Below are positions 19-40,700 of a stretch of 64,000 bases of DNA, piece after piece (positions within the stretch are counted from its first letter, which is position 1; the number at the start of each line of letters is the position of its first letter). The notes below the pieces were generated by a model that worked only from the letters and a program-made list of their open reading frames with translations, was not told the DNA's origin and searched no databases. A program made the translations under genes and the position numbers. Origin of the DNA: Nitrosopumilus sp. Lineage in GTDB: Archaea; Thermoproteota; Nitrososphaeria; Nitrososphaerales; Nitrosopumilaceae. The stretch spans positions 640,001 through 704,000 of the forward strand of contig OZ252243.1 in the NCBI GenBank assembly GCA_965249555.1. The letters run 5' to 3'.

Positions 19-3000
19 GCTTCAAGAGAGTTGTAACTTTATCGTTACAGAAATTTGGTGGTCATGTGCCATATCAGAACGCCCTGATGTTATGCTTCAA
101 TGGGGCTGTAACTTTATCGTTACAGAAATTTGAGAATAAATCCAGTAATAAATGGATTACCAGTTCCAGCGCTTCAATGGGGCTGTAACTTTATCGTTAC
201 AGAAATTTTATGCGCTATGTGTTATGTTTGTCATACTCATGTAGCTTCAATGGGGCTGTAACTTTATCGTTACAGAAATTTCACAAATTGTAATACAATA
301 AGGGTACTATAACGGTTGCTTCAATGGGGCTGTAACTTTATCGTTACAGAAATTTTATGCGCTATGTGTTATGTTTGTCATACTCATGTAGCTTCAATGG
401 GGCTGTAACTTTATCGTTACAGAAATCACTCGGATGTTGTTTTCCCTGCACGTCTGATATACAGAGCTTCAATGGGGCTGTAACTTTACCGTTACAGAAA
501 TTGGCTCCAGCTTTGGTAATCTCAAGAATGATCTCGCCACGCTTCAATGGGGCTGTAACTTTATCGTTACAGAAATCACTCGGATGTTGTTTTCCCTGCA
601 CGTCTGATATACAGAGCTTCAATGGGGCTGTAACTTTACCGTTACAGAAATTGGCTCCAGCTTTGGTAATCTCAAGAATGATCTCGCCACGCTTCAATGG
701 GGCTGTAACTTTATCGTTACAGAAATGGCTTAATCAAAGATGTTATCTCAATGTCCGTATATTATCAACTTCAATGGGGCTGTAACTTTATCGTTACAGA
801 AATATAAAGAGGAAGCTGAGGGTTTCACAATCGATTTTCTAGCTTCAATGGGGCTGTAACTTTATCGTTACAGAAATTTTGTGAGGTTTGAAGTTTGAAG
901 TGGACAGTTTCCCAAGCTTCAATGGGGCTGTAACTTTATCGTTACAGAAATTCTGTTATCTTTGATTTTTAGTTTGATTTTATCTTCTTCAGCTTCAATG
1001 GGGCTGTAACTTTATCGTTACAGAAATCTAAAAATGTTTTGACTGCTGTCGGCGTGTAAGCCGGGCTTCAATGGGGCTGTAACTTTATCGTTACAGAAAT
1101 TTCCATCAGCTCCAGTTTCATCTTTACCAAATGCTTTGCTTCAATGGGGCTGTAACTTTATCGTTACAGAAATTTCTCCAGCCGGATATTGATAACCGTG
1201 AGCCTTCATGCTTCAATGGGGCTGTAACTTTATCGTTACAGAAATTTCGAAAAGCCAATTAGTAAACTTGGTACGACTCACCTGCTTCAATGGGGCTGTA
1301 ACTTTATCGTTACAGAAATTGTAAGTTACAGGATAACGCAATAAATCTATGCTCAGCTTCAATGGGGCTGTAACTTTATCGTTACAGAAATACTTTATCA
1401 CGATTACGGTTTAGATAGTCAAGGACAAGCTTCAATGGGGCTGTAACTTTATCGTTACAGAAATAAATGAATCAGCGAATAGTTCGACATCAAATTTCTT
1501 GCTTCAATGGGGCTGTAACTTTATCGTTACAGAAATCTGATGATAACATCTTTGCTGAATTTCATGTTCATGCTGCTTCAATGGGGCTGTAACTTTATCG
1601 TTACAGAAATCATGAGTGATTTGTTGTCCTCGAGTTGGTCCTCCATGTGCTTCAATGGGGCTGTAACTTTATCGTTACAGAAATGATACAACTTGAAAAT
1701 ATTGCAAAAGCAGAAGCACGCTTCAATGGGGCTGTAACTTTATCGTTACAGAAATTGGAAAATCAAGCTTCAAAATTAATGGCTACAACATCGCTTCAAT
1801 GGGGCTGTAACTTTATCGTTACAGAAATTTCCCTATGGACCTTCCTTTGCAGGTCCTTGTATTTCTCAGCTTCAATGGGGCTGTAACTTTATCGTTACAG
1901 AAATGCGGCAGCCAATCCCGACGGCTTGGCTTCCATCATAGACGCTTCAATGGGGCTGTAACTTTATCGTTACAGAAATGTAGTAATTGCATTCATCTGC
2001 ATTTGACTTGCACCACCGCTTCAATGGGGCTGTAACTTTATCGTTACAGAAATTTCGGCTTTGAAAATTGCTAATGCTTTAGATTTTTTGCTTCAATGGG
2101 GCTGTAACTTTATCGTTACAGAAATCTTGATGTCTCAAACAGCAAGAGTTCAAACTAGATTAGCTTCAATGGGGCTGTAACTTTATCGTTACAGAAATAT
2201 AGAACGGTTATCAGGTCAAAGAGCGTTAAAAGTAGCTTCAATGGGGCTGTAACTTTATCGTTACAGAAATTTGGATAGCGATTGGATAGCTATGACAAAG
2301 CAACTGGAAGCTTCAATGGGGCTGTAACTTTATCGTTACAGAAATCTGCATCAGTAAGAAATAGTAGATTGTCTACAGCCGTTGCTTCAATGGGGCTGTA
2401 ACTTTATCGTTACAGAAATGATGGATCAGGCTATACCAGGGGTATTGGGTCAGGGATGCTTCAATGGGGCTGTAACTTTATCGTTACAGAAATTTAGTGT
2501 TACTGAAAATTCTAGGTTAGGATGGTCCAAAGCTTCAATGGGGCTGTAACTTTATCGTTACAGAAATTTTGAAAAAGAAACTTTGAAAGAAGACAAAGAG
2601 AGAGCGCTTCAATGGGGCTGTAACTTTATCGTTACAGAAATCTTAGGTTGTAGAACTCAAAGAACAGCTGACATTATCGCTTCAATGGGGCTGTAACTTT
2701 ATCGTTACAGAAATGTCAGAATTAGTTTGAGTAAAAACACTACCTTTTCTCGCTTCAATGGGGCTGTAACTTTATCGTTACAGAAATTTAGCATACAAGA
2801 GATAGCCTCCGATACCAACCGCTCCTGGCTTCAATGGGGCTGTAACTTTATCGTTACAGAAATTTCTCAAAATGAAAAAAATTGTTAACAATGTCCAAGC
2901 TTCAATGGGGCTGTAACTTTATCGTTACAGAAATTTTGAGCCTTTCAATTACACTAGTTAAAATTTTAGATGCTTCAATGGGGCTGTAACTTTATCGTTA

Positions 3001-3538
3001 CAGAAATCACCAAGTCGTGCAATACCTCCACCAGGTCCTCCTGGCTTCAATGGGGCTGTAACTTTATCGTTACAGAAATTTGATTGTTTCGACAAGATTC
3101 CAACTGACACCTAGATCCTGGAGGCTTCAATGGGGCTGTAACTTTATCGTTACAGAAATTAGGATATCAGCGCCACGACTTAGGCCCGCTGCTAAATTTG
3201 TGCTTCAATGGGGCTGTAACTTTATCGTTACAGAAATATGGTATACAAGCAACATATCCGTACGAAGTGTGTATTGTCTACGCTTCAATGGGGCTGTAAC
3301 TTTATCGTTACAGAAATATCGAATTTAGAAAACTTGTCGCAATTAGAACATTTATGCTTCAATGGGGCTGTAACTTTATCGTTACAGAAATTTTTATAGA
3401 GCTATAAAGCCTAATATAAACCCTAAATGCTTCAATGGGGCTGTAACTTTATCGTTACAGAAATTTCTGTTTGTTCTTTTTTAGCCTTGTCAAGACTACT
3501 TTGCTTCAATGGGGCTGTAACTTTATCGTTACAGAAAT
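19..3538 (-). CRISPR. CRISPR array, 48 repeats / 47 spacers (about 35-44 bp), type I-G (I-U)-like repeat ATTTCTGTAACGATAAAGTTACAGCCCCATTGAAGC
   Basis: 36-bp repeat with a 7-bp hairpin CTGTAAC/GTTACAG and 3' end ATTGAAGC on the minus strand. The degenerate terminal repeat at 19-54 (4 mismatches) marks the trailer end, so the leader is on the cas2 side. Single-base variant repeats at 466, 616 and 768. Confidence 0.99.
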
Positions 3539-3691: not shown

Positions 3692-3801
3692 CTTGTAACC
3701 CATCGCATTTTCTTTGCCCTATATCACTTGCGCAAAGCTCTTGATAGGGCTTCTTGTCAGGCATCTTGTAACCCATCGCATTTTCTTTGCCCTATATCAC
3801 T
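3692..3801. repeat. 37-bp direct repeat (3692-3728, 3765-3801) flanking a 36-bp unique insert
   Basis: CTTGTAACCCATCGCATTTTCTTTGCCCTATATCACT present twice, exact; the second copy overlaps the cas2 stop codon. Confidence 0.95.
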
Positions 3802-4079
3802 ACGGATCTCTCCCTTTCCGTATCCATTTGTGCCCCTATTACTGATATTCTTTCTTTACTTTTATTTAAGGAGCCAAGATTAATTATCAAAATTTTATCT
3901 TCAACCATATTCATTATATCCTCTAACTCTTCTTTCATAATTATTATTTCCTTGTAGTTAAGATCACACATAAACACAGAATATTGTACAGGTTCCCCAT
4001 ACCCCTTCATCTTTTTATGTATCTGTATCAATCGTTGCGGATCATGTATATCGTAACATACAAAGTATCTATTGCGCAA
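3792..4079 (-). CDS. cas2: CRISPR-associated endonuclease Cas2
   Basis: YFVCYDI..D..R and VQYSVF motifs; likely TTG start at 4079 just after the cas1 stop (ORF track start 4139 overlaps cas1). Confidence 0.96.
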   Translation of the reverse strand: MRNRYFVCYDIHDPQRLIQIHKKMKGYGEPVQYSVFMCDLNYKEIIIMKEELEDIMNMVEDKILIINLGSLNKSKERISVIGAQMDTERERSVVI

Positions 4080-4083
4080 ACCT

Positions 4084-5769
4084 TCATCTTGTCCTAAATG
4101 CAGGATATGTTGGAATCTCTCCAAGAATATGTCTGGCAAGTAATCTTGTTTGAGTTTCCATTATGCGTTTATAGCTGGCAGCATAACCCAAAAGTGGATG
4201 AATAACAACAGAATCCATACGTCTCTCATATGCAGTTATCACTGTAGAACGCCCTCTATTGGTAAGGTTTGTTCCAAAGTCGGTCTTTATCAAATCTGAT
4301 TCATTGATTTCACCGTTATTGATAAGCGTAATACATGTAGAATCTGCTACAATTGGTCTGAATTCCTCGATCATATCAAGTGCAAGTGCGGGTTTCCCAT
4401 ATTTTGGCATATGAAGAAATCCCAGATAGGGATCAAGACCTACTCTACTAACTGTAATCATTGCATTCCTTGTCAACATTGCATATAGAAATGACATAAT
4501 TGCATTAACTGGATCCTTTGGAGGTCTTCTGTTTCTTCCATTAAAATCAAAAGCCGTTGATTCAGATTTTATCATGCCATTAAATTCTGAAAAATATATG
4601 CGTGCAGCCATTCCCTCTATTCCAAGAAGAGTATCATATTGTTTTACAGTACATGCACGTTGTGCAAGTATGTTCATCTTGTGTATCTTATCTATAGGGG
4701 GAGATTTGTGGTTTCTACGTAGCATTGTCATGCAATTTTTTATTTTTCCAAACACCATCTGACGAGCTATCCCAATGGATGCATTTTTAACATCATATTT
4801 TTTATGCTGTTTAATTCGCAGTTCTATATTTTTATGTGAAAGTCCTGTAGTAATACCCGTAAACCATCCTCCATATGTCATGTAACAGATAGGAATATTT
4901 CGCTTGCTTAACTCCCTTATTGCTTGTGTTGTGATCTGGATATTTCCAAATAGTGTAATTTCTGAAATGTCTATCAATCTAATCTTCTTTATTATTGTAT
5001 CTTTTAATTTTACATGAATGCAATCATTTGATTTTGTAATATGTGCTCCCTGTTCCTGTATGTATACTGGTATGGTGTCATTTCTTATTGGATACATTCT
5101 GCGTATCTGGTCCTTGTTTATTTGATGAGTCTCATCTGATAACAAATTGACTTCATCAGGTAGACATATTCCCACAAGGGAACATCTTGGACATTTCGGA
5201 CTGTCAACCAACGGAGCAGGTATTGTATATGACTTTGCCATTTCTTTCATCTCTTTGATCATCTGTAATGTTTTTTTTACTGTTTGATCATCTAGATTAA
5301 TTTCTATTCTTTGCTTTGATGCAATATAATAAACAAAACCCTTTGTACATGTGTATCCATTTGCACGTAGTAAAAGTCCTTGAGCACATACTTGTATGAT
5401 GTGATCATCATATGTTCTGTTAGGAGTATTGGGAGTGCTGCCACGTTTGTATTCTATTGGTGTTGCAACGTTTCCATCTAATTCAAGTAGATCTGTTTTA
5501 GATATCAATCCAAGCTCTGTATCAGACAAAGTAACTGATCTGGCATGAATCTTTTCTACTGTGATATTATCTTTATCGGTCTTTTGTTCAAGCATTTTTC
5601 CTCCTGACGGTTTGTCTACATTTCTATGCTGATATTTGCCGTCTATCACATCTTTGTTGGATTCAAATTCCCCTTGAACCCATTCCATATATGCAAGTCG
5701 TTTACAATATACGAATTGTGTTAGCATTCTTACTGGTATAAGATTTGAATTAACACTTGATGTACTCAT
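4084..5769 (-). CDS. cas1: Cas4-Cas1 fusion protein (typical of type I-G/I-U)
   Basis: N-terminal Cas4 (YCKR, KTD..IEYK, CPRCSLVGIC Fe-S cysteines); C-terminal Cas1 (GIEG, RRPPKDPVNA, GFLH, LALDMIEEFR). Confidence 0.97.
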   Translation of the reverse strand: MSTSSVNSNLIPVRMLTQFVYCKRLAYMEWVQGEFESNKDVIDGKYQHRNVDKPSGGKMLEQKTDKDNITVEKIHARSVTLSDTELGLISKTDLLELDGNVATPIEYKRGSTPNTPNRTYDDHIIQVCAQGLLLRANGYTCTKGFVYYIASKQRIEINLDDQTVKKTLQMIKEMKEMAKSYTIPAPLVDSPKCPRCSLVGICLPDEVNLLSDETHQINKDQIRRMYPIRNDTIPVYIQEQGAHITKSNDCIHVKLKDTIIKKIRLIDISEITLFGNIQITTQAIRELSKRNIPICYMTYGGWFTGITTGLSHKNIELRIKQHKKYDVKNASIGIARQMVFGKIKNCMTMLRRNHKSPPIDKIHKMNILAQRACTVKQYDTLLGIEGMAARIYFSEFNGMIKSESTAFDFNGRNRRPPKDPVNAIMSFLYAMLTRNAMITVSRVGLDPYLGFLHMPKYGKPALALDMIEEFRPIVADSTCITLINNGEINESDLIKTDFGTNLTNRGRSTVITAYERRMDSVVIHPLLGYAASYKRIMETQTRLLARHILGEIPTYPAFRTR

Positions 5770-6112: not shown

Positions 6113-6637
6113 TTATACAAACTTTCTAGCCTTCATTCTCTTGATTTTTTCTTGCAACAAAATACATCCTTGGATGAGAGTTTCAGGTCTAGGCGGACAG
6201 CCAGGAACATAGACATCGACTGGAATCACTCCGTCAATTCCCGGAAGTACATTGTATGAATCAAAATACAACCCCCCAGTAATTGCACAAGCTCCCATAG
6301 CAATTACATACTTTGGTTCTGGCATTTGATCATAAACTAGTCTGAGACGTGGTGCCATTTTTCTTGTAATAGTTCCTTGAACAACAATTAGATCACATTG
6401 TCTAAGTGATCCAAATGCCTCAATGATACCAAATCTTTCAACATCATATCTAGGACTTGATGCTGCACCAAATTCAACACTGCAGCAAGCCGTTTCAATG
6501 TGGACAGGCCAGAGTGACCAAATTCTACCCCAATTGATGGCATAGCCCAATGGTTTGCCGATTGCCCGCTCTAAAATGTCCCCTAGCTTTCCTACAAAGA
6601 CATTTGCATTTTCTGGCGTTACTAAATCATTAAGCAA
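6113..6637 (-). CDS. nuoB: NADH-quinone oxidoreductase subunit B
   Basis: TACCSVE, GACAITGG and VPGCPPRPE Fe-S motifs. Confidence 0.97.
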   Translation of the reverse strand: MLNDLVTPENANVFVGKLGDILERAIGKPLGYAINWGRIWSLWPVHIETACCSVEFGAASSPRYDVERFGIIEAFGSLRQCDLIVVQGTITRKMAPRLRLVYDQMPEPKYVIAMGACAITGGLYFDSYNVLPGIDGVIPVDVYVPGCPPRPETLIQGCILLQEKIKRMKARKFV

Positions 6638-6676
6638 TCTTATCCCCTATCTCATAAATGCAATTTATATAAAAAA

Positions 6677-7051
6677 CTACCATATTCTTCGCCTCCCAGA
6701 CTGATACAATGCAAATGCCATTGCGCCAAACATTATAGCTAAAAATCCCATCATTGGCAAAGTTGCACTCTTTGGAAGTTCCAAAAGGGCACTTCCCCAG
6801 GCATACAGGAAGATTGCCATGACATCAAAGACTACAAACATCAGAATGTAGGGATAATACTGCATCATAAAGTGAGTCCGGCCTTCGCCTGACGGGACTT
6901 GACCGCATTCCATTGGTAAAAATTTCACAGGATTGTTTATTTTTCGAGGAGAAATCATCCTAGAAATAACTAAAGCCGGAGCCATAGCTGCTACGGCAAA
7001 TCCAAACATCAATACAACAATACTGTAATTGCCCGCTAATTCTCCGACCAA
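6677..7051 (-). CDS. nuoA: NADH-quinone oxidoreductase subunit A
   Basis: Three hydrophobic helices, PMECG loop, FVVFDV; directly upstream of nuoB. Confidence 0.95.
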   Translation of the reverse strand: MVGELAGNYSIVVLMFGFAVAAMAPALVISRMISPRKINNPVKFLPMECGQVPSGEGRTHFMMQYYPYILMFVVFDVMAIFLYAWGSALLELPKSATLPMMGFLAIMFGAMAFALYQSGRRRIW

Positions 7052-7097: not shown

Positions 7098-8030
7098 GGT
7101 TCTCCCATACGAAATCGTCTCCAACCCTACTGAGGACACTTACTAGCGTGCTTTGCTGAATCAGGACATCTCAGATATGCTTTGCATCTTATACTTTCGT
7201 TGTGTCAGTTCATGATTTTGTGTACGATACACTTTCAGAATTTGTTAGCATGTACCCGGATTATTGCAAGCATCCGGTCTTGCAGCTGCCACCTTTGCCT
7301 TTTGTTTTCCTCTTCTCTTTGCAATTCTGAAATAGAATGATTCCATTCTTTCATCAAATCGTACTATAGTATTTGCAGCCTCTACCATTGCGTTACGTAA
7401 CCATGCAGAACCCCTCTTTGTTATTCCGCCTCCTCGGTGCACATCTGCGCTGTCCCTGTGCGATGGTGCAAGTCCTGCATATGAGACTAGTTTTTCTGCT
7501 GTTGCAAATCTGCTGATGTCAACTATCTCTGAAATTATTGTCAATGCCGTGACATAGTTTATTCCAGGAATGGTCATTAGCAGTCTTGTTTTCTCATCCT
7601 CATTGCTAATTGTTGCAATCTTTATCTCAATTGTGTTGATCTGTTTTTGCATCATATCTATGCTGTCAAGATATGCATCCATTGCCATTCTGTCAACCTC
7701 ACTCAGATTAATTTCATGCAACCATCGTACTCCTTTTTGCGAGAATGTCTTTGTGGGTGTAATCATATTTTGCAAGTATTGCATAAATCATGTTTTTGTG
7801 TTTTGATACATTTCGCACGCGATTCAGTCTGGTTCTTACCAGACTGTATAGGTCTCTATAGTATTTTTCTGGTACGAATGAGCTGTACACCATGTCTGCT
7901 CTTAGCAAGTCTGCCAATACGTCTGAATCAAGTTTGTCGTTTTTTATCTTTGCCTGTGCAATTATCTTGGTCTTTGCAGGATGTGCGAGAACTGTATCAA
8001 TTCCATGGTCTTCTAGTGTGTCATGGAGTC
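7098..8030 (-). pseudogene. IS110-family transposase remnant (5'-truncated, frameshifted) with its 3' end
   Basis: KNDKLDSDVLADLLR, TIPGI, SYAGLAP and KRGSAWLR motifs split over several frames; 3' end sequence recurs at 24511, 32551 and 34399. Confidence 0.9.
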
Positions 8031-8910: not shown

Positions 8911-9923
8911 ATGCCTACCTTATTAACAACCAGAGATCGAATTAGTTTTGAGGATAAAATACAGACAAAAGCAGTCAATACGCAGAAAACATCCCAGTCA
9001 TCAGTAAGAAACTTTGAGAGATTTTGCAAGGAAAAGTATGACAAATCAATGGAGGAGATAATATCAGAATATCACAAAGTTGAGATGGATTTAATCTATG
9101 AATCACTGCAAGAATGGATAAACTGGAACAATACAAAGGTTCATTCAAACAGCATTCCTACACTGTTTTCATATCTCAAAACATACCTAAGATATCACAA
9201 GATAAGAATTACAAAAGAGGATGTGGTAAAACAGCTGAGTTTACCTCACAAGGTCAAAGAGGAGAAATATCCATTGACAAAAGAGGAGATCAGAAGCCGA
9301 TGATTTTTTGTTTGATATTGAACATGATTACCTGGGAGAAATATCCATTGACAAAAGAGGAGATCAGAAGGATACTGCAAGTATGCAATAAGAATAACAC
9401 GATCAAGATTCTGGCACAGTTATCAAGTGATATGAGAAAAGGGGAATTGCTCCAGCTGAAAAAAAGAGATCTTGGACAAAAAAGAATCATGGTAAATATT
9501 CCTGCAAGTATTACAAAGACAAAAAGATCAAGGGTGACTTTTTTTAGCAGAGAGATAATACCTTTACTGATGCCGATTCTTAGAAGGCTCTGGCTGATGA
9601 TGACAGAGTGTTTTTTCGTGGAAAGCTAAATCCTGCAAACATAAGCAATCACTACCAGCTGATTCTGACAGAGTATCTAAAGAGGACAGGGCTTGATCAA
9701 AAATATGAATCCGGACGTCACAAGATAACAACACACAGCTTTAGGGCATTTTTTATCACAAAGGTGTCTCTTCATGATCCAAACCTTGCAAAGTACTTTG
9801 CAGGACAGGAACAAACAAGAGACCTGCTGATGTATGACATATTGACAGCAGATGAAAAGTGAGAAAACTATATCAAATTTGAGCCTGATTTGTTGATATG
9901 GGATTCAAATAAAAGCGTAAGGT
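8911..9923 (+). pseudogene. tyrosine recombinase/integrase, disrupted
   Basis: Three frames carry the N-terminal binding domain, SSDMRKGELLQL (catalytic R), KTK, HSFR and LMY; broken by a 74-bp insertion at about 9297, a frameshift near 9590 and a stop at 9860. Confidence 0.9.
9261..9370. repeat. 36-bp direct repeat (9261-9296, 9335-9370) flanking a 38-bp unique insert
   Basis: GGAGAAATATCCATTGACAAAAGAGGAGATCAGAAG present twice, exact; flanking bases differ on both sides. Confidence 0.97.
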
Positions 9924-9936
9924 AAGGCCAACTGTC

Positions 9937-10629
9937 ATGCCACATGTCTCAATTTATGTTGATGAATCAGGAGATATTGGATTTAAAAGATCATCAGAGT
10001 TCTTTACTGTAGGATATGTGTTTACTGTTAACAAGTTTCCTCAAAAAGAAAATAGGAGAATGAAAAAATTATTAAAGAATATCAATCTAGGTATCAAAAA
10101 ACACAATAAAAAAATTTCAGAATTCAAGTTTTCAGACAATACACATGAAATTAGAAAGAAGGTTTTACATGAAATACAAAAATTGGATGCAAACATTGGT
10201 GTCATATGTATAAGCAAGGATTCAGTAAAGGCAAAATTGAAAAAGGATCCCATCAGATTCTACAGCTATGTCATAATTGAGAATATTGCAACGGTGCTAG
10301 TAAATGATTATATGAAAACATATGATCCTTACAACAACATTCGTTTTACAATAGACAGAAGTTTATCAAAAAATCAGATTAAATCATTTAATGAATACTG
10401 TGAAGAAAAAATATCATACAAAACACATCAAAGGGATCAGGAAATGGAAATACGCACAACAATCAAGCATGAGGATTCAAAAAAAGTTCCGATGCTGCAA
10501 GTTGCAGACTATATAGCAGGTGCAACACAGAGAAAAATTGTACATAGAGATTCAACATACTATAATATAATTTCAGAGAGAATAAAACATCGTGAAAAAT
10601 GGGATTGGAACAACAAAATTAGTTGGTGA
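9937..10629 (+). CDS. DUF3800 domain protein
   Basis: N-terminal IYVDESG, EFKF and C-terminal S......LQVADYIAG motifs. Confidence 0.85.
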   Translation: MPHVSIYVDESGDIGFKRSSEFFTVGYVFTVNKFPQKENRRMKKLLKNINLGIKKHNKKISEFKFSDNTHEIRKKVLHEIQKLDANIGVICISKDSVKAKLKKDPIRFYSYVIIENIATVLVNDYMKTYDPYNNIRFTIDRSLSKNQIKSFNEYCEEKISYKTHQRDQEMEIRTTIKHEDSKKVPMLQVADYIAGATQRKIVHRDSTYYNIISERIKHREKWDWNNKISW

Positions 10630-14819: not shown

Positions 14820-16307
14820 CTAATTCAACCATTCCCCACCTCTAATTCCCCATACATTATAATTTGCTTGAGCCAAATCTCCTGCTTCATTTAGTGTTGT
14901 TGGACCTATTGCTCCTATGTAATTCTCTGCAATTCCTGGGAGTGCAGCTTTAATCACACTAACATCACTGCTTTGGGTTTCAAGCATTGCCAGTCCAATT
15001 AACCACACGGCATCATATGAAGAATGCACAAATACGTTAGGAACCATGCCAAGTACTTCAGTTATATGAGATTGCACTTTGTTATATTTTGGGTTTTCTG
15101 TAATTGCAAACGCAACTGATGTAAATTGAACATTAGTTGAAAATTCTAGTGCTATTGGATCATCAATCAGACTGTGGTCTTTTGTGGTAGCACCTGGTCC
15201 GAACCATCTTACATCATGTAATATGTCATATTCGGATGCTGATTGAGTAAACTGTAGAATTTCCGCAAATCCCAAAAACATGACACCAACTTTGTCTGCT
15301 CCATATTCATCAACATGTTCTTGTACTTGTTGAGCTAATAGGGAAACTGATACAGAAAATTCTGGAGTCTCCGGATTGTAGCGAATAGGTTCGCCTACTA
15401 TTCCCCCTCTTTTGATAAATGAATCAGTTGTAGACTTACTTAGACCATCACCCCATGTGTCTCCCCTATATACTGGAACCAATACATCGATTCCTTCATG
15501 TTTCATTAGCTTTGCAAGTGCAGGTCCTTGCTTAGAGTCATCTGGAATTAGACGAAATACACTATCATTTGTAATAGCTAATGCAGGTGCAGTAGAACAA
15601 CAGCTAACTAACAACATGTTGTTAGAGTCCGAATAACCTTTCATGTGGCTAACATTGGAACTAGTTTCAGGTCCTATTACAATTCCAATTCCTTTGGCAT
15701 AAAGTGATGTTAGTTTTTCTAGTGCAGTTACTGGATTAGTTGCAGAATCTTCTGTAATCATTTTGAGATGCCATGGGGCATCAATGTCTTGCAAATGTTT
15801 GTTAAACTCGGATACCCCAAACTTTGAGCCCTCATTGCTTCCTAGTCCATGAGTTGACCAATCACCTGTTAGTGGAACGATTGCTCCGATGGTTACTTCT
15901 CCGGACAGTCCTGCTGTTTCTTCCATCATTGGATCTTTCATCATATCATCCTCCATCATTGGATCTTTCATCATATCATCCTCCATCATTGGATCTTTCA
16001 TCATATCATCCTCCATCATTGGATCTTTCATCATATCATCCTCCATCATTGGATCTTTCATCATATCATCCTCCATCATTGGATCTTTCATCATATCATC
16101 CTCCATCATTGGATCTTTCATCATATCATCCTCCATCATTGGATCTTTCATCATATCATCCTCCATCATTGGATCTTTCATCATATCATCCTCCATCATT
16201 GTTTCATCTACATCCATAACTTCTGTATCCGTACCTAATACTCCATAAGCAACACCGATAATAATTAGAATAACTACAACACCAATTCCTATTTGTTTAG
16301 TACTCAT
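14820..16307 (-). CDS. membrane-anchored ABC substrate-binding protein (LivJ-like) with Met/Asp-rich repeat linker
   Basis: N-terminal TM helix, IGAIVPLTG, EDS, IGP..S, YDAV motifs; a possible 1-bp deletion near 14830 removes about 14 C-terminal residues (GKYAMIDDSIMLN in another frame). Confidence 0.88.
   Translation of the reverse strand: MSTKQIGIGVVVILIIIGVAYGVLGTDTEVMDVDETMMEDDMMKDPMMEDDMMKDPMMEDDMMKDPMMEDDMMKDPMMEDDMMKDPMMEDDMMKDPMMEDDMMKDPMMEDDMMKDPMMEDDMMKDPMMEETAGLSGEVTIGAIVPLTGDWSTHGLGSNEGSKFGVSEFNKHLQDIDAPWHLKMITEDSATNPVTALEKLTSLYAKGIGIVIGPETSSNVSHMKGYSDSNNMLLVSCCSTAPALAITNDSVFRLIPDDSKQGPALAKLMKHEGIDVLVPVYRGDTWGDGLSKSTTDSFIKRGGIVGEPIRYNPETPEFSVSVSLLAQQVQEHVDEYGADKVGVMFLGFAEILQFTQSASEYDILHDVRWFGPGATTKDHSLIDDPIALEFSTNVQFTSVAFAITENPKYNKVQSHITEVLGMVPNVFVHSSYDAVWLIGLAMLETQSSDVSVIKAALPGIAENYIGAIGPTTLNEAGDLAQANYNVWGIRGGEWLN
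15922..16200 (-). repeat. 30-bp tandem repeat, 9 perfect copies plus a partial, encoding MMEDDMMKDP
   Basis: GGATCTTTCATCATATCATCCTCCATCATT repeated exactly. Confidence 0.99.
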
Positions 16308-24918: not shown

Positions 24919-25025
24919 AACTATGAGCAGGCAACAACACGGAAGAAAGATGCCTAAATCAAGTTCAAGTTCTAGTTACCGTTCATCTAGTAACTATGAC
25001 CAGGCAACAACACGGAAGAAAGGTG
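24919..25025. repeat. about 34-bp imperfect direct repeat, period 73 bp
   Basis: AACTATGA(G/C)CAGGCAACAACACGGAAGAAAG(A/G)TG at 24919 and 24992. Confidence 0.85.
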
Positions 25026-34713: not shown

Positions 34714-37700
34714 CTAGTCGTTCCAGCTAAAATCAGAGTCATCATATATCATACAGTCACACAGCATCTCCCGGGCCAGCATCTCCTGTATGGATAGTGA
34801 TTCCAGCAATGCGGGATCTGATACTCTGTCCAGCCTTAATGGCATATCATATGAGAATGATTCATCGAGGGTTCCCTGAATTGCCTTACTATCAAAGATC
34901 AGAGTTGCCCTATCCTGCTCATCAATTACCAGATTTGCAAAGTTTGAATGAATTCTAGTCATTACGCTTGTTGGCGAATCATCTCTTTGTTGTATATCAG
35001 GTCTTGTAATCTGCAACCAGGTGCCATAGTCATTTTGTGACCATATGTATCCATATTGGTCCTCCCAGACCTGGTAACGTCTGTCTTGCTGGGTTAGTGA
35101 TATGGTCTCAAACGGATTCTGGTTGCCATGCTTTTGTTTTAGTTCATGAGTTGCTGCTGCAAGTAATGCTTCTCCCACAAACTCTACACCTTCGTTGATA
35201 TATGTGGTAGTAGAATAACGTTGTTTGTCAACTGCATTAATTGCCAATACTTCATGGGATAATGGTGCCATTATTACAAATGATATGGTAACATCAAAGC
35301 ACCTCTCTGCAGTATCTGATGATGTACATTTGACTTTACTAATTGTGGCACCAGTCATGTTCTGATTTACCAGTCCCTCTTTTTGCTCATGGACTATATC
35401 TGCAATGTCATAGCCTGCAGGACTGGTATAGTTGCTATTTACATTCACTATAATGTGGGACTCTGCATTAGTCTTCAGGCCAACTTCTGGAACTCCAAGG
35501 GATAGAGATACCGACTTTAGGCCATTTGTTGCATAGCCTTTGATGTGGACTGTATTGTTATCACCAATAATGCTGCTAGTCATATTAAAGTCAGTGTGCC
35601 AGTTGTTTGTAATGGTTAATGGCATGCCATTAAAGACAAAGCCGTCATCAACTAGCTGTACTGCTTGATTATTCCAATGTTTGCCAAAGGTTGGCTTTGT
35701 TTTCCATTCATTAGAATCTCCACCTTTTTTCTTTGGTGTTTCAGTTCCAGAAGGTACACTAGCGGTGCCACCAACTGCTGTTGTATCAAGTGTAATGACT
35801 ATAGATGGTGATGCAGCAGATGTGTTGACTCCATCAGATGCCGTTGCAGTAAAAGAGTTCTCACCTTCATCTAGTGCAACTTCTGTAAATGAGAAATTCC
35901 CTGAACCATCGGCAATTACTGTACCAGCTGGTGTTGCTCCATTGAATAGTTCTATAGTTGCTCCGGCTTCAGTTGAACCGCCTTCAATTGTGATTGGTGA
36001 TGAGGAAACAATTGCAGGTGATGTGGCAATTGCAGGAACTGGTGGTGCTGTGGTATCAGATTCTACTGTTACAGTTTCAGTGATTGTTGCGACTTGTCCA
36101 TTGCTGTCAGTTACGGTATAAGTTACAACATAGTCTCTAGAAGTGTTGGCATTTACTGTTTCACCGCCAACTAAACTGGATGCAATTCCTGAGATATCAG
36201 ATTCATTGGCAATTACACCTGGGGTGTATGTTCCGTCAAATGGTACTGCAGTGGAATAGTCAACTGTGTGACCATCAACATCAAAGGTTGGTGCTGTGGT
36301 ATCAACTACGGTAATTGTAATTGATTTTTGGTCTGGTGTGTTGCCTGCCGCATCATCTGGTGCATCATACAATACGGTGTATTCTCCTATACTACTGGTG
36401 TCAGGTGTATCACCTGTAACTGTTACTGTTCCAGAGTAGGCTTGGTTATTATCAGTTACAGTAGCGTCAGGTATAGTGTAGGTGTTGGTTTGAGTTAACT
36501 CAATTATTTCACTAGATCCTGCTGGTGTGATAACTGGTTTTTCTGTATCAGGTAGAGTTGGTGCTGTGGTATCAGCTGTAACTGTAACTGTTCTAGTTAC
36601 TGTAACTGCAGGGTTTCCAGCTGCATCATCTACATCAAAGGTAACATCATAGGTTCCAACCTCACTGGTATCAACTGTATCTCCACCAACAGATACGTCA
36701 TCTGTGATAACTCCATCAGTGTTATCAGTTGCAGTAAAGGTGAATGGTGTGTATGTTTCTCCAAGTTCAATGGAAAATGATTCCTCATTGACTGTGATAG
36801 ATGGTACTGTGGTATCAGCTGTAACTGTAACTGTTCTAGTTACTGTTACTGCATGGTTTCCGGCCGCATCATCCACATCAAAGGTTACATTGTAAGTATT
36901 ATCTACACTGGTATCAACTGTATCTCCAACAACTACATTATCTGTGATATCCCCGTCAGTGTTATCATTTGCAGAATAGGTGAATGCTGTGTATGTTTCT
37001 CCAAGTTCAACGGAGAATGAATCTTTATCAACTGTGATTACTGGTGCTATGGTATCAAGCGTAATGACTATAGCTGGTGATGCAGCAGATGTGTTTGGTC
37101 CATCAGATGCCGTTGCAGTAAACGAGTTCTCACCATCAGTCAGTGTAACTGTAAATGAGAAAGATCCCGAATCAGCAGTTACTGTATCAACTGTTGTTCC
37201 TCCACGGAACAGTTCCACAGTTGTCCCGGCCTCAGCCGTACCATCAATCGTGATTGATGGTGTATTGACAGTTGCAGGTGGTGTGGTAATTGCAGGAACT
37301 GCTGGTGCTGTGGTATCAAGTGTAATGAGTATAGGTGATGATGATGCAGATGTGTTTGGTCCATCAGACGCTGTTACAGTGAATGAGTTGGCACCCTTAG
37401 TCAGTGTAACTGTAAATGAGAAAGATCCCGAATCAGCAGTTACTGTATCACCAGTTGATGTTGCTCCCTTGAGCAGTGCTACAGTTGTCCCGGCCTCAGC
37501 CGTACCTTCAATCGTGAATGATGGTGTATTGACAGTTGCAGGTGGTGTGGTGATTATAGGAGCTTCCGGTGGTATGGTATCAAGTGTAATGAGTACAGGT
37601 GATGATGCGTCAGATGTGTTTGGTCCATCAGACGCCGTTGCAGTGAATGAGTTCTCACCATCAGTCAGTGTAACTGTAAATGAGAAAGATCCTGAATCAG

Positions 37701-40700
37701 CAGTTACTGTATCACCAGTTGATGTTCCCCCCTTGAATAGTTCTACAGTTGTCCCGGCCTCAGCCGTACCTTCAATCGTGATTGATGGTGTATTGACAGT
37801 TGCAGGTGAGGTGGTAATTTCGGGAGCTTCCGGTGCTGTGGTATCAAGTGTAATGAGTACAGGTGATGATGATGCAGATGTGTTTGGTCCATCAGACGCC
37901 GTTGCAGTGAATGAGTTCTCACCTTCATCTAGTGCAACTCCTGTAAATGAGAAATTCCCGTCACCATCAGCAGCTACTGTATCACCAGTTGATGTTGCTC
38001 CCTTGAGCAGTGCTACAGTTGTCCCGGCCTCAGCCGTACCTTCAATCGTGAATGATGGTGTATTGACAGTTGCAGGTGAGGTGGTGATTTCAGGAGCTTC
38101 CGGTGCTGTGGTGTCAACTACAGTAATTACAATTGATTTTTCATCTGGTGTGTTACCTGCCGCATCATCTGGCGCATTATACAATACGGTGTATTCTTTT
38201 ACAACACGGGTGTCAGGTGTAGCACCTGTAACTGCTACTGTTCCAGTGTAGACTGGGTCATTATCAGTTACGATAGCGCCTTGTTCTGTGTAGGTGTTGG
38301 TTTGAGTTAACTCAATTGTTTGGGTAGATCCTGCTGGTGTGATTACTGGTGCTGTGGTATCTGTAACTGTAACTGTTCTAGCTACTGTTACTGCATGGTT
38401 TCCGACCGCATCATCCACATCAAAGGTAACATCATAGGTTCCAGCTGTATCGGTATCAGCTGGATATCCAGCAACAGTTACCTCACCGGTGATAATCCCG
38501 TCAGTATTATCATTTGCAGTAAAGGTGAATAGCTCGTACGTTCCTCCAAGCTCGACGGAGAGCGAATCCTCATTGACTGTGATGGTTGGCACCGTGGCAT
38601 CAGGTGTAACTGTGACTGTCCTGGTTACTGTTACTGCATGGTTTCCAGCCGCATCATCCACATCAAAGGTAACAGTGTAGGTATTAGCTACACTGGTATC
38701 AACTGTATCTCCAACAACTACATTATCTGTGATATCCCCGTCAGTGTTATCATTTGCAGAATAGGTGAATGCTGTGTATGTTTCTCCAAGTTCAACGGAG
38801 AATGAATCTTTATCAACTGTGATTACTGGTGCTATGGTATCAAGTGTAATGAGTACAGGTGATGATGATGCAGATGTGTTTGGTCCATCAGTTGCTGTTG
38901 CAGTGAATGAGTTCTCACCATCAGTCAGTGTAACTGTAAATGAGAAATTTCCGTCACCATCAGCAGTTATTGTATCAACTGTTGATCCTTCATTGAATAG
39001 TTCTACAGTTGTCCCGGCTTCAGCCGTACCTTCAATCGTGAATGATGATAAGGAAACAGTTTCAGATGGCGTGGTAATTGCAGGAACCGGTGGTGTTTCA
39101 GTATCAAGCGTAATGAGTACAGCTGGTGATGCGCCAGATGTGTTTGGTCCGTCAGACGCTGTTGCAGTGAATGAGTTCTCACCCTCAGTCAGTGTAACTG
39201 TAAATGAGAAAGATCCCGAATCAGCAGCTACTGTATCACCAGTTGATGTTGCTCCCTTGAGCAGTGCTACAGTTGTCCCGGCCTCAGCCGTACCTTCAAT
39301 CGTGAATGATGATGAACCGACAGTTACAGGTGAGGTGGTGATTATAGGAGCTTCCGGTGCTATGGTATCAAGCGTAATGACTATAGCTGGTGATGGACCA
39401 GACGTGTTGACTCCATCAGATGCTCTTGCAGTGAATGAGTTGGCACCTTCATCTAGTACAACTCCTGCAAATGAGAAACTACCTGAACCATCGGCAGTTA
39501 CTGTACCAGCTGGTGTTGCTCCATTGAATAGTGTTATAGTTGCTCCGGCCTCAGTTGAACCGCCATCAATTGTGATTGGTGATGCGCCAACAGTTGCAGG
39601 TGGCGTGGTAATTGCAGGAACTGGTGGTGCTGTAACATCAGATTCTACTGTTACAGTTTCAGTGATTGTTGCGACTTGTCCATTGTTGTCAGTTACAGTG
39701 TAAGTTACAGCATATTCTCCAGAAGCGTTGACATTGACTGTTTCATCACCAACTGTACTGGATTTAATTCCTGAGATATCAGATTGATTGTTAATTACAC
39801 CTGGGGTGTATGGTCCGCCAAATGGTACTGTAGTGGAATAGTCATCTGTGTTACCATCAACATCAAAGGTTGGCGGTGTGGTATCAGATACAGTAATTAC
39901 AATTGATTGTTGGTCCGGTGTGTTGCCTGCCGCATCATCTGGCGCATCATACAATACGGTGTAAACTCCTATACTACTGGTGTCAGGCGTATCACCAGAG
40001 GGTGTTGCCGTTTCAGAGTAATCTGGGTCATTATCAGTTACGGTGCCGCCTTGTTCTGTGTAGGTGTCAGTTGCAGTCAACTCTATTGTTGTATCAGATC
40101 CTGTTGGTGTGATTACTGGCGGCGTAACATCAGGTCCTACTGTTACAGTTTCAGTGATTGTTCTGCTTTGTTCATTGTTGTCAGTTACGGTGTAAGTTAC
40201 AGCATATTCTCCAGAAGCGTTGACATTGACTGTTTTGCCGCCAACTGTACTGGATTTAATTCCTGAGATATCAGATTGATTGTTAATTACACCTTGGGTG
40301 TATGGTCCGCCAAATGGCACTGTAGTGGAATAGTCATCTGTGTTACCATCAACATCAAAGGTTGGCGGTGTGGTATCAGATACGGTAATTACAATTGATT
40401 GTTGGTCCGGTGTGTTGCCTGCCGCATCATCTGGCGCATCATACAATACGGTGTAAACTCCTATACTACTGGTGTCAGGTGTATCACCAGAGACTGCTAC
40501 TGTTCCAGGGTAGGCCGGGTCATTATCAGTTACGGTGCCGCCTTGTTCTGTGTAGGTGTCAGTTGCAGTCAACTCTATTGTTGTATCAGATCCTGTTGGT
40601 GTGATTACTGGCGCTGTGGTGTCAAGTGTGATGAGTACTGCTGGTGATGGATCAGACGTGTTGACTCCATCAGATGCTCTTGCAGTAAATGAGTTGCCAC

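Follow-up and report, generated by a model that had tools for sequence, protein, structure and literature searches.

Footprints of probable off-target CRISPR spacer integration in the chromosome of a Nitrosopumilus archaeon

How did an integrase gene come to carry a unique 38-bp segment between two exact copies of 36 bp of its own coding sequence, 5.7 kb away from a CRISPR array? The gene lies in a 64,000-nucleotide stretch of a Nitrosopumilus sp. chromosome (assembly GCA_965249555.1, contig OZ252243.1, positions 640,001 to 704,000 of the forward strand), which is called the window below; coordinates are those of the window unless they are given as genome positions. The source genome (G000) is one contig of 2,230,439 bp with 34.4% G+C. 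From sequence comparisons within this genome and with its relatives, we conclude that the 74-bp lesion is very probably a fixed off-target spacer integration by a type I-G Cas4/Cas1-Cas2 complex. At least 11 further footprints of this kind were found in the genome, and thus the adaptation enzyme appears to scar its own chromosome as well.

The duplication and its insert in the integrase pseudogene

The features of the focal site are the following:
8911..9862, + strand: tyrosine-recombinase (integrase) pseudogene in three frames (8911-9303, 9372-9629 and 9608-9862)
9261..9296, + strand: target-site copy 1, inside the integrase reading frame, exact repeat
9297..9334, + strand: 38-bp insert, the putative ectopic spacer, unique in the window and in the genome
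9335..9370, + strand: target-site copy 2, exact repeat of copy 1
9586..9592, + strand: second integrase lesion seen in alignment, about +2 nt relative to homologues, with a frameshift near 9588

The duplicated sequence, GGAGAAATATCCATTGACAAAAGAGGAGATCAGAAG, forms an exact direct repeat at 9261-9296 and 9335-9370, and its length is exactly 36 bp because the bases outside both copies differ on either side. It was counted twice in the window versus zero times in 100 shuffles, and the insert occurred once in the window and once in the 2.23-Mb genome. The duplication is as long as the repeat of the array (36 nt), and the insert has the commonest length of the array spacers (38 nt, 13 of 47), which range from 35 to 44 nt. 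The preliminary description of this locus had read an exact 36-bp duplication around a unique 38-bp insert and had likened both lengths to those of the array; the shuffles, the uniqueness checks and the reads bore this out. Its claim that removal of 74 bp restores the frame was confirmed too. The insertion shifts the frame and leads to a stop at 9301-9303, and excision of the 74 bp joins frame 1 to frame 0 to give ...KEEKYPLTKEEIRRILQV, parallel to the relatives. In two of these relatives (G017 and G009), homologues of about 73% DNA identity have the site once only, and the alignment is free of gaps apart from one of exactly 74 columns.

The structure was also recovered from public sequencing runs. 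A 98-nt piece (9267-9364) that spans both junctions was found in Logan contigs of four runs from three studies, although the run that best holds the junctions may be the source sample of the assembly and the independence of the four runs is partial. For three runs (X1, X2 and X5) the 36-mer appeared as a piece of its own with a depth about double that of its flanks, and no such separate piece was among the rows shown for the fourth run, X4. Among the joints listed in the Logan contigs of the four runs none bypassed the insert, and no read differences were listed at the second lesion. Since both junctions occur in four runs, the structure is real DNA; a lack of read support, which the preliminary description had named as refuting its reading, was not seen.

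Inverted repeats were absent from the focal region, the flanks were identical to fractions of 0.32 and 0.12 over 25 nt at offset 74, and the insert was unlike its flanks. Two candidate origins were tried for this site and rejected: tandem duplication or slippage, since the similarity at the repeat offset does not run through the intervening segment, and insertion of a transposon or insertion sequence (IS), since there are no inverted repeats, the inserts of the different events are all different and the duplication is 36 bp long.

As for the gene itself, the middle piece matched Pfam PF00589 (Phage_integrase) weakly (21.2 bits, below the cut-off of 27.1), and the third piece has a visible HSFR...Y stretch, which we take to be the tyrosine recombinase motif. 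The G009 homologue, which is 74% identical, scored 37 bits for Phage_integrase, above the cut-off, and had SAM-like N-terminal matches in addition. The pseudogene is flanked by an IS110-family transposase fragment (7245-7784) and a DUF3800 gene (9937-10629). A DUF3800-like open reading frame (ORF), judged by eye, also follows the integrase homologue in G017.

The same footprint elsewhere in the chromosome and in relatives

A genome-wide histogram of direct repeats had been set beforehand as a test, with a spike predicted at this geometry. We scanned the genome outside the arrays for exact direct repeats of at least 16 nt at spacings of up to 300 bp, which gave 1039 pairs; a pair was called isolated when its flanks were unlike each other and it had neither a third copy nor internal periodicity. 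There were 65 isolated pairs, 29 of them at least 24 nt long, and 13 of these 29 had a start-to-start spacing of 69-75 bp. In a mismatch-tolerant scan, for which at least 25 of 28 matches were required, 21 of the 50 isolated pairs fell at spacings of 66-75 bp and every other 5-bp bin held at most 4 (binomial p 1.9e-17 for 21 of 50 pairs in 10 of 271 possible spacings). The predicted spike was thus found in both scans. After removal of one tandem-like pair and of two pairs that belong to a three-repeat mini-array, 18 pairs were left, which comprise 12 clear events, 5 decayed candidates and 1 odd pair. Duplications in the clear events measure 35-39 bp and inserts 32-39 bp, the latter somewhat shorter than the array spacers. 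They are given below by genome position, together with the source of the insert where a distant second copy was found, and are followed by the remaining pairs and by one pair outside the 18:
genome 16547: duplication 37 bp, spacing 75 bp
genome 19053: duplication 36 bp with 1 mismatch, spacing 75 bp
genome 23778: duplication 37 bp, spacing 69 bp; splits an IS4/5 transposase; insert matches 991557-991588 (32/32), in a Na+/H+ exchanger gene
genome 202366: duplication 36 bp with 1 mismatch, spacing 72 bp
genome 305868: duplication 38 bp with 1 mismatch, spacing 70 bp; insert matches 384575-384605 (31/32), no gene name
genome 643692 (window 3692-3801): 37-bp exact copies at 3692-3728 and 3765-3801, 36-bp insert, spacing 73 bp
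genome 649261 (the focal event): duplication 36 bp, spacing 74 bp
genome 1219275: duplication 36 bp, spacing 71 bp; insert matches 965252-965286 (35/35), no gene name
genome 1268457: duplication 39 bp with 1 mismatch, spacing 72 bp; insert matches 1099184-1099216 (31/33), in an ammonium transporter gene
genome 1882077: duplication 39 bp, spacing 71 bp
genome 1948572: duplication 35 bp, spacing 72 bp; insert matches 2199943-2199975 (35/37), no gene name
genome 2050963: duplication 35 bp, spacing 73 bp; insert matches 601745-601780 (36/38), in a tRNA-His gene
genome 18809, 95142, 512985, 664919 and 1941796: decayed candidates
window 24919..25025 (genome 664919): a weaker decayed candidate, a 34-nt pair with 2 mismatches, spacing 73 bp
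genome 2053378: the odd pair, 28 bp, spacing 70 bp
genome 1840225-1840317: a pair that fits a 30-nt repeat system, 29-32 bp, spacing 64 bp, 35-nt insert

The candidate at 24919..25025 has flanks that are partly alike, and a diverged tandem duplication is an alternative for it. The 35-nt insert of the pair at genome 1840225 matches a dispersed repeat with more than 20 genome copies. A second clear event stands close to the adaptation genes: the one at 3692-3801 lies in the interval from the leader to the 3' end of cas2, at 154 bp past the leader-proximal repeat, and its second copy overlaps the last cas2 codons. No source for its insert was found in the own genome.

All seven events in long frames that are still open (at least 220 codons) have spacings divisible by 3, versus two of the remaining ten, and this in-frame bias is read as a selection filter. 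The events that break a frame are intergenic, lie at gene ends or hit mobile-element genes (the integrase and the IS4/5 transposase at genome 23778). Four events within 8 kb form a hot spot in giant ORFs at genome 16.5-24 kb (p 4.5e-4).

Half of the clear-event inserts (6 of 12) are matched by a distant second copy on the chromosome (94-100% identity) whose likeness to the insert ends where the insert does. Among the others, one gave a weak match (31/36) and five, the focal one included, gave no match. The 12 inserts showed no significant match to one another or to the array spacers. In the three canonical arrays, none of 108 spacers matched the chromosome outside the arrays over more than 20 nt. 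Self inserts at 6 of 12 ectopic sites against 0 of 108 in the arrays is the pattern to be expected if self DNA is often taken up by the machinery; such spacers would presumably kill the cell from within a working array and do no harm at sites that yield no CRISPR RNA (crRNA). When the weak match was included, four of seven sources lay within 135 kb near the GC-skew maximum at about 1.03 Mb (scan p 0.024), and without it three of six (p 0.17). The clustering of self sources is a hint and is not robust.

A clean empty site was seen for one event besides the focal one. At the event at genome 1268457, G007 and G052 (85-89% identical) hold one site copy with a gap of exactly 72 columns, and the alignments with many further genomes are interrupted at the same two positions of the query. 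For the IS4/5 event at genome 23778, paralogues in the same genome (about 80% identity) hold one site copy, plus an unrelated indel of about 60 nt beside it; the alignment is untidy and gives partial support only for an empty site. The region of the event at genome 202366 is too diverged in the relatives for a clean empty-site alignment (three loci, one of them probably misoriented).

Of 60 other genomes in a sample of the genus, 4 have a full-length homologue of the Cas4/Cas1 protein. The relatives were scanned for event pairs in sampled stretches, namely 100 kb around the I-G loci of G014, G055 and G009 and 400 kb of G007. In G014, whose Cas4/Cas1 is 64% identical, there were four pairs of 36-38 bp with spacings of 72-74, located 11-27 kb from its array. 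G009 gave one doubtful pair with a spacing of 68. G007 served as the control: a single protein query with this Cas4/Cas1 (no Cas1 family model) had no match of E<=1e-10 there, and no I-G repeat core was found. Of the 20 isolated pairs in its 400-kb sample, two had spacing 72, and one of these two was a diverged tandem duplication. The density of event-like pairs is then 1 per 400 kb in G007 versus an average of about 3.2 per 400 kb in G000, a comparison in which the control is small.

Remnants of Cas4/Cas1 were observed in two other genomes, residues 1-49 in G017 (82% identity) and residues 523-561 in G018 (74%); other genomes of the genus carry several solo Cas1 genes, 409-439 aa in length. 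Judging by these sequences, remnants and solo genes suggest repeated loss of I-G systems and the presence of casposon-like elements in the genus.

The type I-G module and the explanations weighed

The adaptation genes that would be responsible lie beside the array:
19..3538, probably - strand (functional strand): type I-G CRISPR array, 48 repeats of 36 nt (repeat ATTTCTG...CCCCATTGAAGC)
19-54: degenerate terminal repeat at the low-coordinate end of the array
3792..4139, - strand: cas2, 115 aa; Pfam CRISPR_Cas2 65 bits, NCBIfam cas2
4084..5769, - strand: cas4/cas1 fusion (Cas4g/Cas1g), 561 aa without stops, the presumed integrase behind the events

The array is probably read from the minus strand with its leader beyond 3538, because the repeat ends in ATTGAAGC and the decayed repeat stands at the low-coordinate end. 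Its 47 spacers have 37 nt as the second commonest length (11 of 47). Towards the old end, at 171-726, the array holds duplications of spacer-repeat units: a 150-nt unit is found again with 100% identity (391-726), and there are two copies of one spacer (about 207 and about 354). The Cas4g/Cas1g protein scored 296 bits for Pfam Cas_Cas1, 64 bits for Cas_Cas4 and 731 bits for NCBIfam cas4g_cas1g (cut-off 560). Its translation contains a single N-terminal Cys together with a CxxCx5C cluster and the motif D...EYK. The genes for Cas7g (Csb1), Csb2, Cas3g and Cas8g1/Csx17 are located just upstream of the window, and a complete type I-G set thus stands beside the array, with all six proteins above the NCBIfam cut-offs and Pfam in agreement. 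The adaptation genes are about 3.5-5.5 kb from the focal site and are apparently intact by sequence.

The whole I-G locus (about 14.5 kb; genome 630943-647051) is situated between nuoC (genome 630943-631539) and nuoB/nuoA (6113-7051). All of these, nuoC (Complex1_30kDa) included, are on the minus strand, and it looks as if the I-G locus was inserted into the NADH dehydrogenase operon. A second CRISPR system of 61 repeats of 30 nt is found at genome 1609811-1613821 with its own Cas1 at genome 1615392-1616225. Two small arrays were observed as well. An orphan mini-array at genome 1884690-1884798 has two perfect 36-nt I-G repeats around one 37-nt spacer, lies far from cas genes and has the ectopic event at genome 1882077 at a distance of 2.6 kb; Pfam searches of 10 ORFs near it gave ordinary cellular genes and no viral ones. 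The three-repeat mini-array at genome 1607942-1608117 has 35-nt repeats ending in ATTGAAAC, with 1-2 mismatches between copies and spacings of 71 and 70. It is a third repeat type, 1.7 kb from the 30-nt array, and is either a small real array or a neo-array used twice.

For the focal lesion, the type I-G complex would have acted as follows. A Cas4/Cas1-Cas2 complex that carries a prespacer of about 38 bp would attack the integrase gene, and not the leader-repeat junction, by two strand transfers, one on each strand and about 36 bp from each other. The 36 bp between them would be duplicated when the gaps are repaired, which leaves the order site, insert, site. The spacing of the two cuts is presumably set by the enzyme and not by the target sequence, because the targets share no motif with the repeat. 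Self-derived inserts may survive at the ectopic sites since these make no working crRNAs; in the array they would be lethal. The proposal of the preliminary description, a fixed natural ectopic spacer integration, is supported by the spike, the origins of the inserts, the empty sites, the reads and the complete I-G module, with the Cas4/1-Cas2 complex as the likely catalyst.

The alternatives were weighed against the same evidence. Slippage, template switching or break repair with filler DNA, all independent of CRISPR, can yield duplications with short fillers; the focal insert, which has no known source, fits filler DNA, and an event-like pair was found in G007, where one protein query found no Cas1. 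However, such processes give no reason for duplications of 35-39 bp at spacings of 69-75 bp at 17 or more places, or for a footprint whose geometry is the array's own period, and we hold them to be very unlikely. Local template switching, which the preliminary description had named as an observation that would speak against its reading, is excluded by the six inserts with sharp ends that came from loci tens to hundreds of kb away. It is likewise quite improbable that a different enzyme did the work, whether the Cas1 of the second system, a casposase-like Cas1 or an unknown integrase. The second Cas1 does stand beside an array of 30-nt repeats, the pair at genome 1840225 fits that system and solo Cas1 genes are present in the genus. 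Yet the duplications of the 17 events group at 35-39 bp and not at 30, and G000 has two Cas1 genes only, each adjoining an array. Casposon integration makes short duplications and carries a whole element.

That the inserts are a tiny non-autonomous mobile element with a long target-site duplication is scarcely credible. Target duplication is a hallmark of transposition, and two events hit mobile-element genes, but the 12 inserts all differ, several are pieces of housekeeping genes and the focal region has no inverted repeats; the diversity of the inserts largely refutes this idea. Short repeats can also be mis-assembled. The chance of an assembly or sequencing artefact is practically negligible given the piece over both junctions in four runs of three studies, the doubled depth of the 36-mer in three runs and the lack of any alternative joint among those listed.

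Several observations weigh against off-target integration by the I-G complex or narrow what it explains. To begin with the focal gene, a further frameshift of about +2 nt, independent of the insertion, is present in the integrase near 9588, and the homologues in G009 and G017 are likewise split, so the gene may have been dead before the insertion. Because the second frameshift exists, the 74-bp insertion is one of two disabling lesions. The integrase family is, as far as these alignments tell, decaying in the genus, and the insertion cannot be called the knock-out; the claim of the preliminary description that the gene was knocked out by it was not upheld.

The focal insert is also without an identifiable source. 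Its exact 38-mer had no match in viral, genome and metagenome collections, in scans that required exact identity and could miss a diverged source; blastn against phages gave chance-level matches only (E 0.5 or worse), and the longest matches of a blastn-short search of the own genome were 17 nt. The search for a source that the preliminary description had proposed thus gave nothing. It had further proposed to look for a TTN protospacer-adjacent motif (PAM), which was done at the six sources of the other events: TT was seen at -3/-2 in either orientation for two of them and not for the other four (by eye), so Cas4-dependent PAM selection is not evident.

The target sites are a further difficulty, as the 12 sites have no clear common motif and no likeness to the leader-repeat junction. 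Their information content in the best orientation was 17.7, versus 15.2 +/- 1.0 in 40 random controls with a maximum of 18.0. In-register comparison with the leader-repeat junction gave nothing convincing, and the repeat-end motif ATTGAAGC with at most 1 mismatch was present at 1 of 12 sites against 0.9 expected. The link of the focal site to the CRISPR repeat by CCATTGA, which the preliminary description had pointed out, is due to chance: the heptamer is common to the site and to the reverse complement of the repeat out of register (site 11-17, repeat 26-32), 11.5% of random 36-mers of this genome have a 7-mer in common with the repeat, and the in-register identity of 10/36 is at chance level. 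Separately, an exact GCTTCAAT was observed 3 nt beyond the duplication at genome 1219275. Duplications of 39 bp around inserts of 32-33 bp occur as well, so either the ruler is not strict or chance matches blur the boundaries.

The relatives also gave mixed results. G055, which has the closest Cas4/Cas1 (78% identical), showed no event pairs in the 100 kb around its locus, and the 400-kb sample of G007 has one event-like pair of 38 bp with 1 mismatch at spacing 72. This pair may come from a system that was lost, given that G017 and G018 retain Cas4/1 fragments, or it may belong to the background. The spike had been expected to be absent from relatives without cas1. The lower density in G007 agrees with this expectation and the single event-like pair does not.

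Other repeats of the window are noted for completeness. A giant coding region of tandem repeats extends over 39632-63245 (period 492 nt, 48 copies, 68% match) and is preceded at 37043-39631 by repeats of 264 nt and 243 nt; the region at 37043-63245 probably encodes a giant surface protein. A perfect 30-nt tandem repeat of 9.3 copies at 100% identity is located at 15922-16201.

Significance and comparison with known systems

A tentative extension, which we would sooner doubt than accept, is that the I-G Cas4/1-Cas2 complex is a standing endogenous mutagen and that its ectopic footprints are an uncensored fossil record of naive adaptation. If this is true, about half of what is captured stems from the organism's own DNA, perhaps with a preference for the region of the GC-skew maximum, and the real array is purged of self spacers. 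The enzyme alone, and not the repeat sequence, would set the stagger of about 36 bp. The events would add 23-25 in-frame codons to giant surface-protein genes, and they could seed new arrays, of which the mini-array at genome 1607942-1608117 may be a seed used twice. If off-target integration as such holds, the fidelity of CRISPR adaptation comes in nature at a cost to the genome that can be measured, the captures of the acquisition machinery can be read before autoimmunity censors them, and so can the intrinsic ruler of the enzyme on non-repeat DNA. A single complete genome offers at least 12 fixed events, empty-site comparators, self-derived inserts and a selection signature, and the footprint (isolated direct repeats of repeat length at the array period) can be computed for any genome.

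Non-canonical integration by over-produced Cas1-Cas2 of the type I-E system of E. coli was reportedly described by Nivala, Shipman and Church in 2018 (Nat Microbiol 3:310). We searched a literature that is mostly non-subscription and found no report of many natural chromosomal off-target events in one genome, or of any for type I-G. The comparisons that follow draw on parts of the papers cited. In E. coli, off-target Cas1-Cas2 integration in vivo gave rise to neo-CRISPR loci (PMC7054753; bioRxiv 10.1101/148544), at sites that resembled the context of the leader with integration host factor (IHF) and repeat (PMC9456107); off-target integration had been demonstrated mainly with the over-produced E. 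coli proteins, and the evidence for natural off-target events was circumstantial and came from two other species (bioRxiv 10.1101/148544). The events reported here are like these loci in having a spacer-sized insert outside the array, a target duplication of repeat length and the order site, spacer, site. They are different in that they are natural and fixed, belong to a type I-G Cas4/Cas1 fusion, number at least 12 in one genome, have many self-derived inserts and show no detectable target motif.

Cas1 and Cas2 of Pyrococcus furiosus alone integrated spacers into non-CRISPR DNA in vitro (PMC6698737). There the reaction itself sets the repeat-length distance between the two attacks, as it would in our genome. 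However, the off-target sites of P. furiosus had repeat-like sequence features, of which none were seen here, and that work used plasmids in vitro, whereas the events here are chromosomal and inherited (PMC6698737). Ectopic acquisition in Streptococcus thermophilus refers to repeats away from the leader-proximal one (PMC7999890; PMC8047081); its target is a genuine CRISPR repeat in an array, whereas ordinary genes and intergenic DNA were hit here.

Closest in machinery are the type I-G systems of Methanosarcina barkeri and Geobacter sulfurreducens, for which adaptation by Cas4/1-Cas2 has been described (PMC10274657; PMC6547450). They have the same Cas4g/Cas1g fusion with Cas2 and a similar repeat end (...ATTGAAGC). 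The Cas1 domain of type I-G was found to be a sequence-independent nuclease, with no more than 60-70% correct spacer-side integration in vitro (PMC10274657). These studies deal with integration at the CRISPR, whereas chromosomal off-target events are described here. Taken with these systems, the at least 12 ectopic footprints in one genome are a known kind of event at an unusual natural scale.

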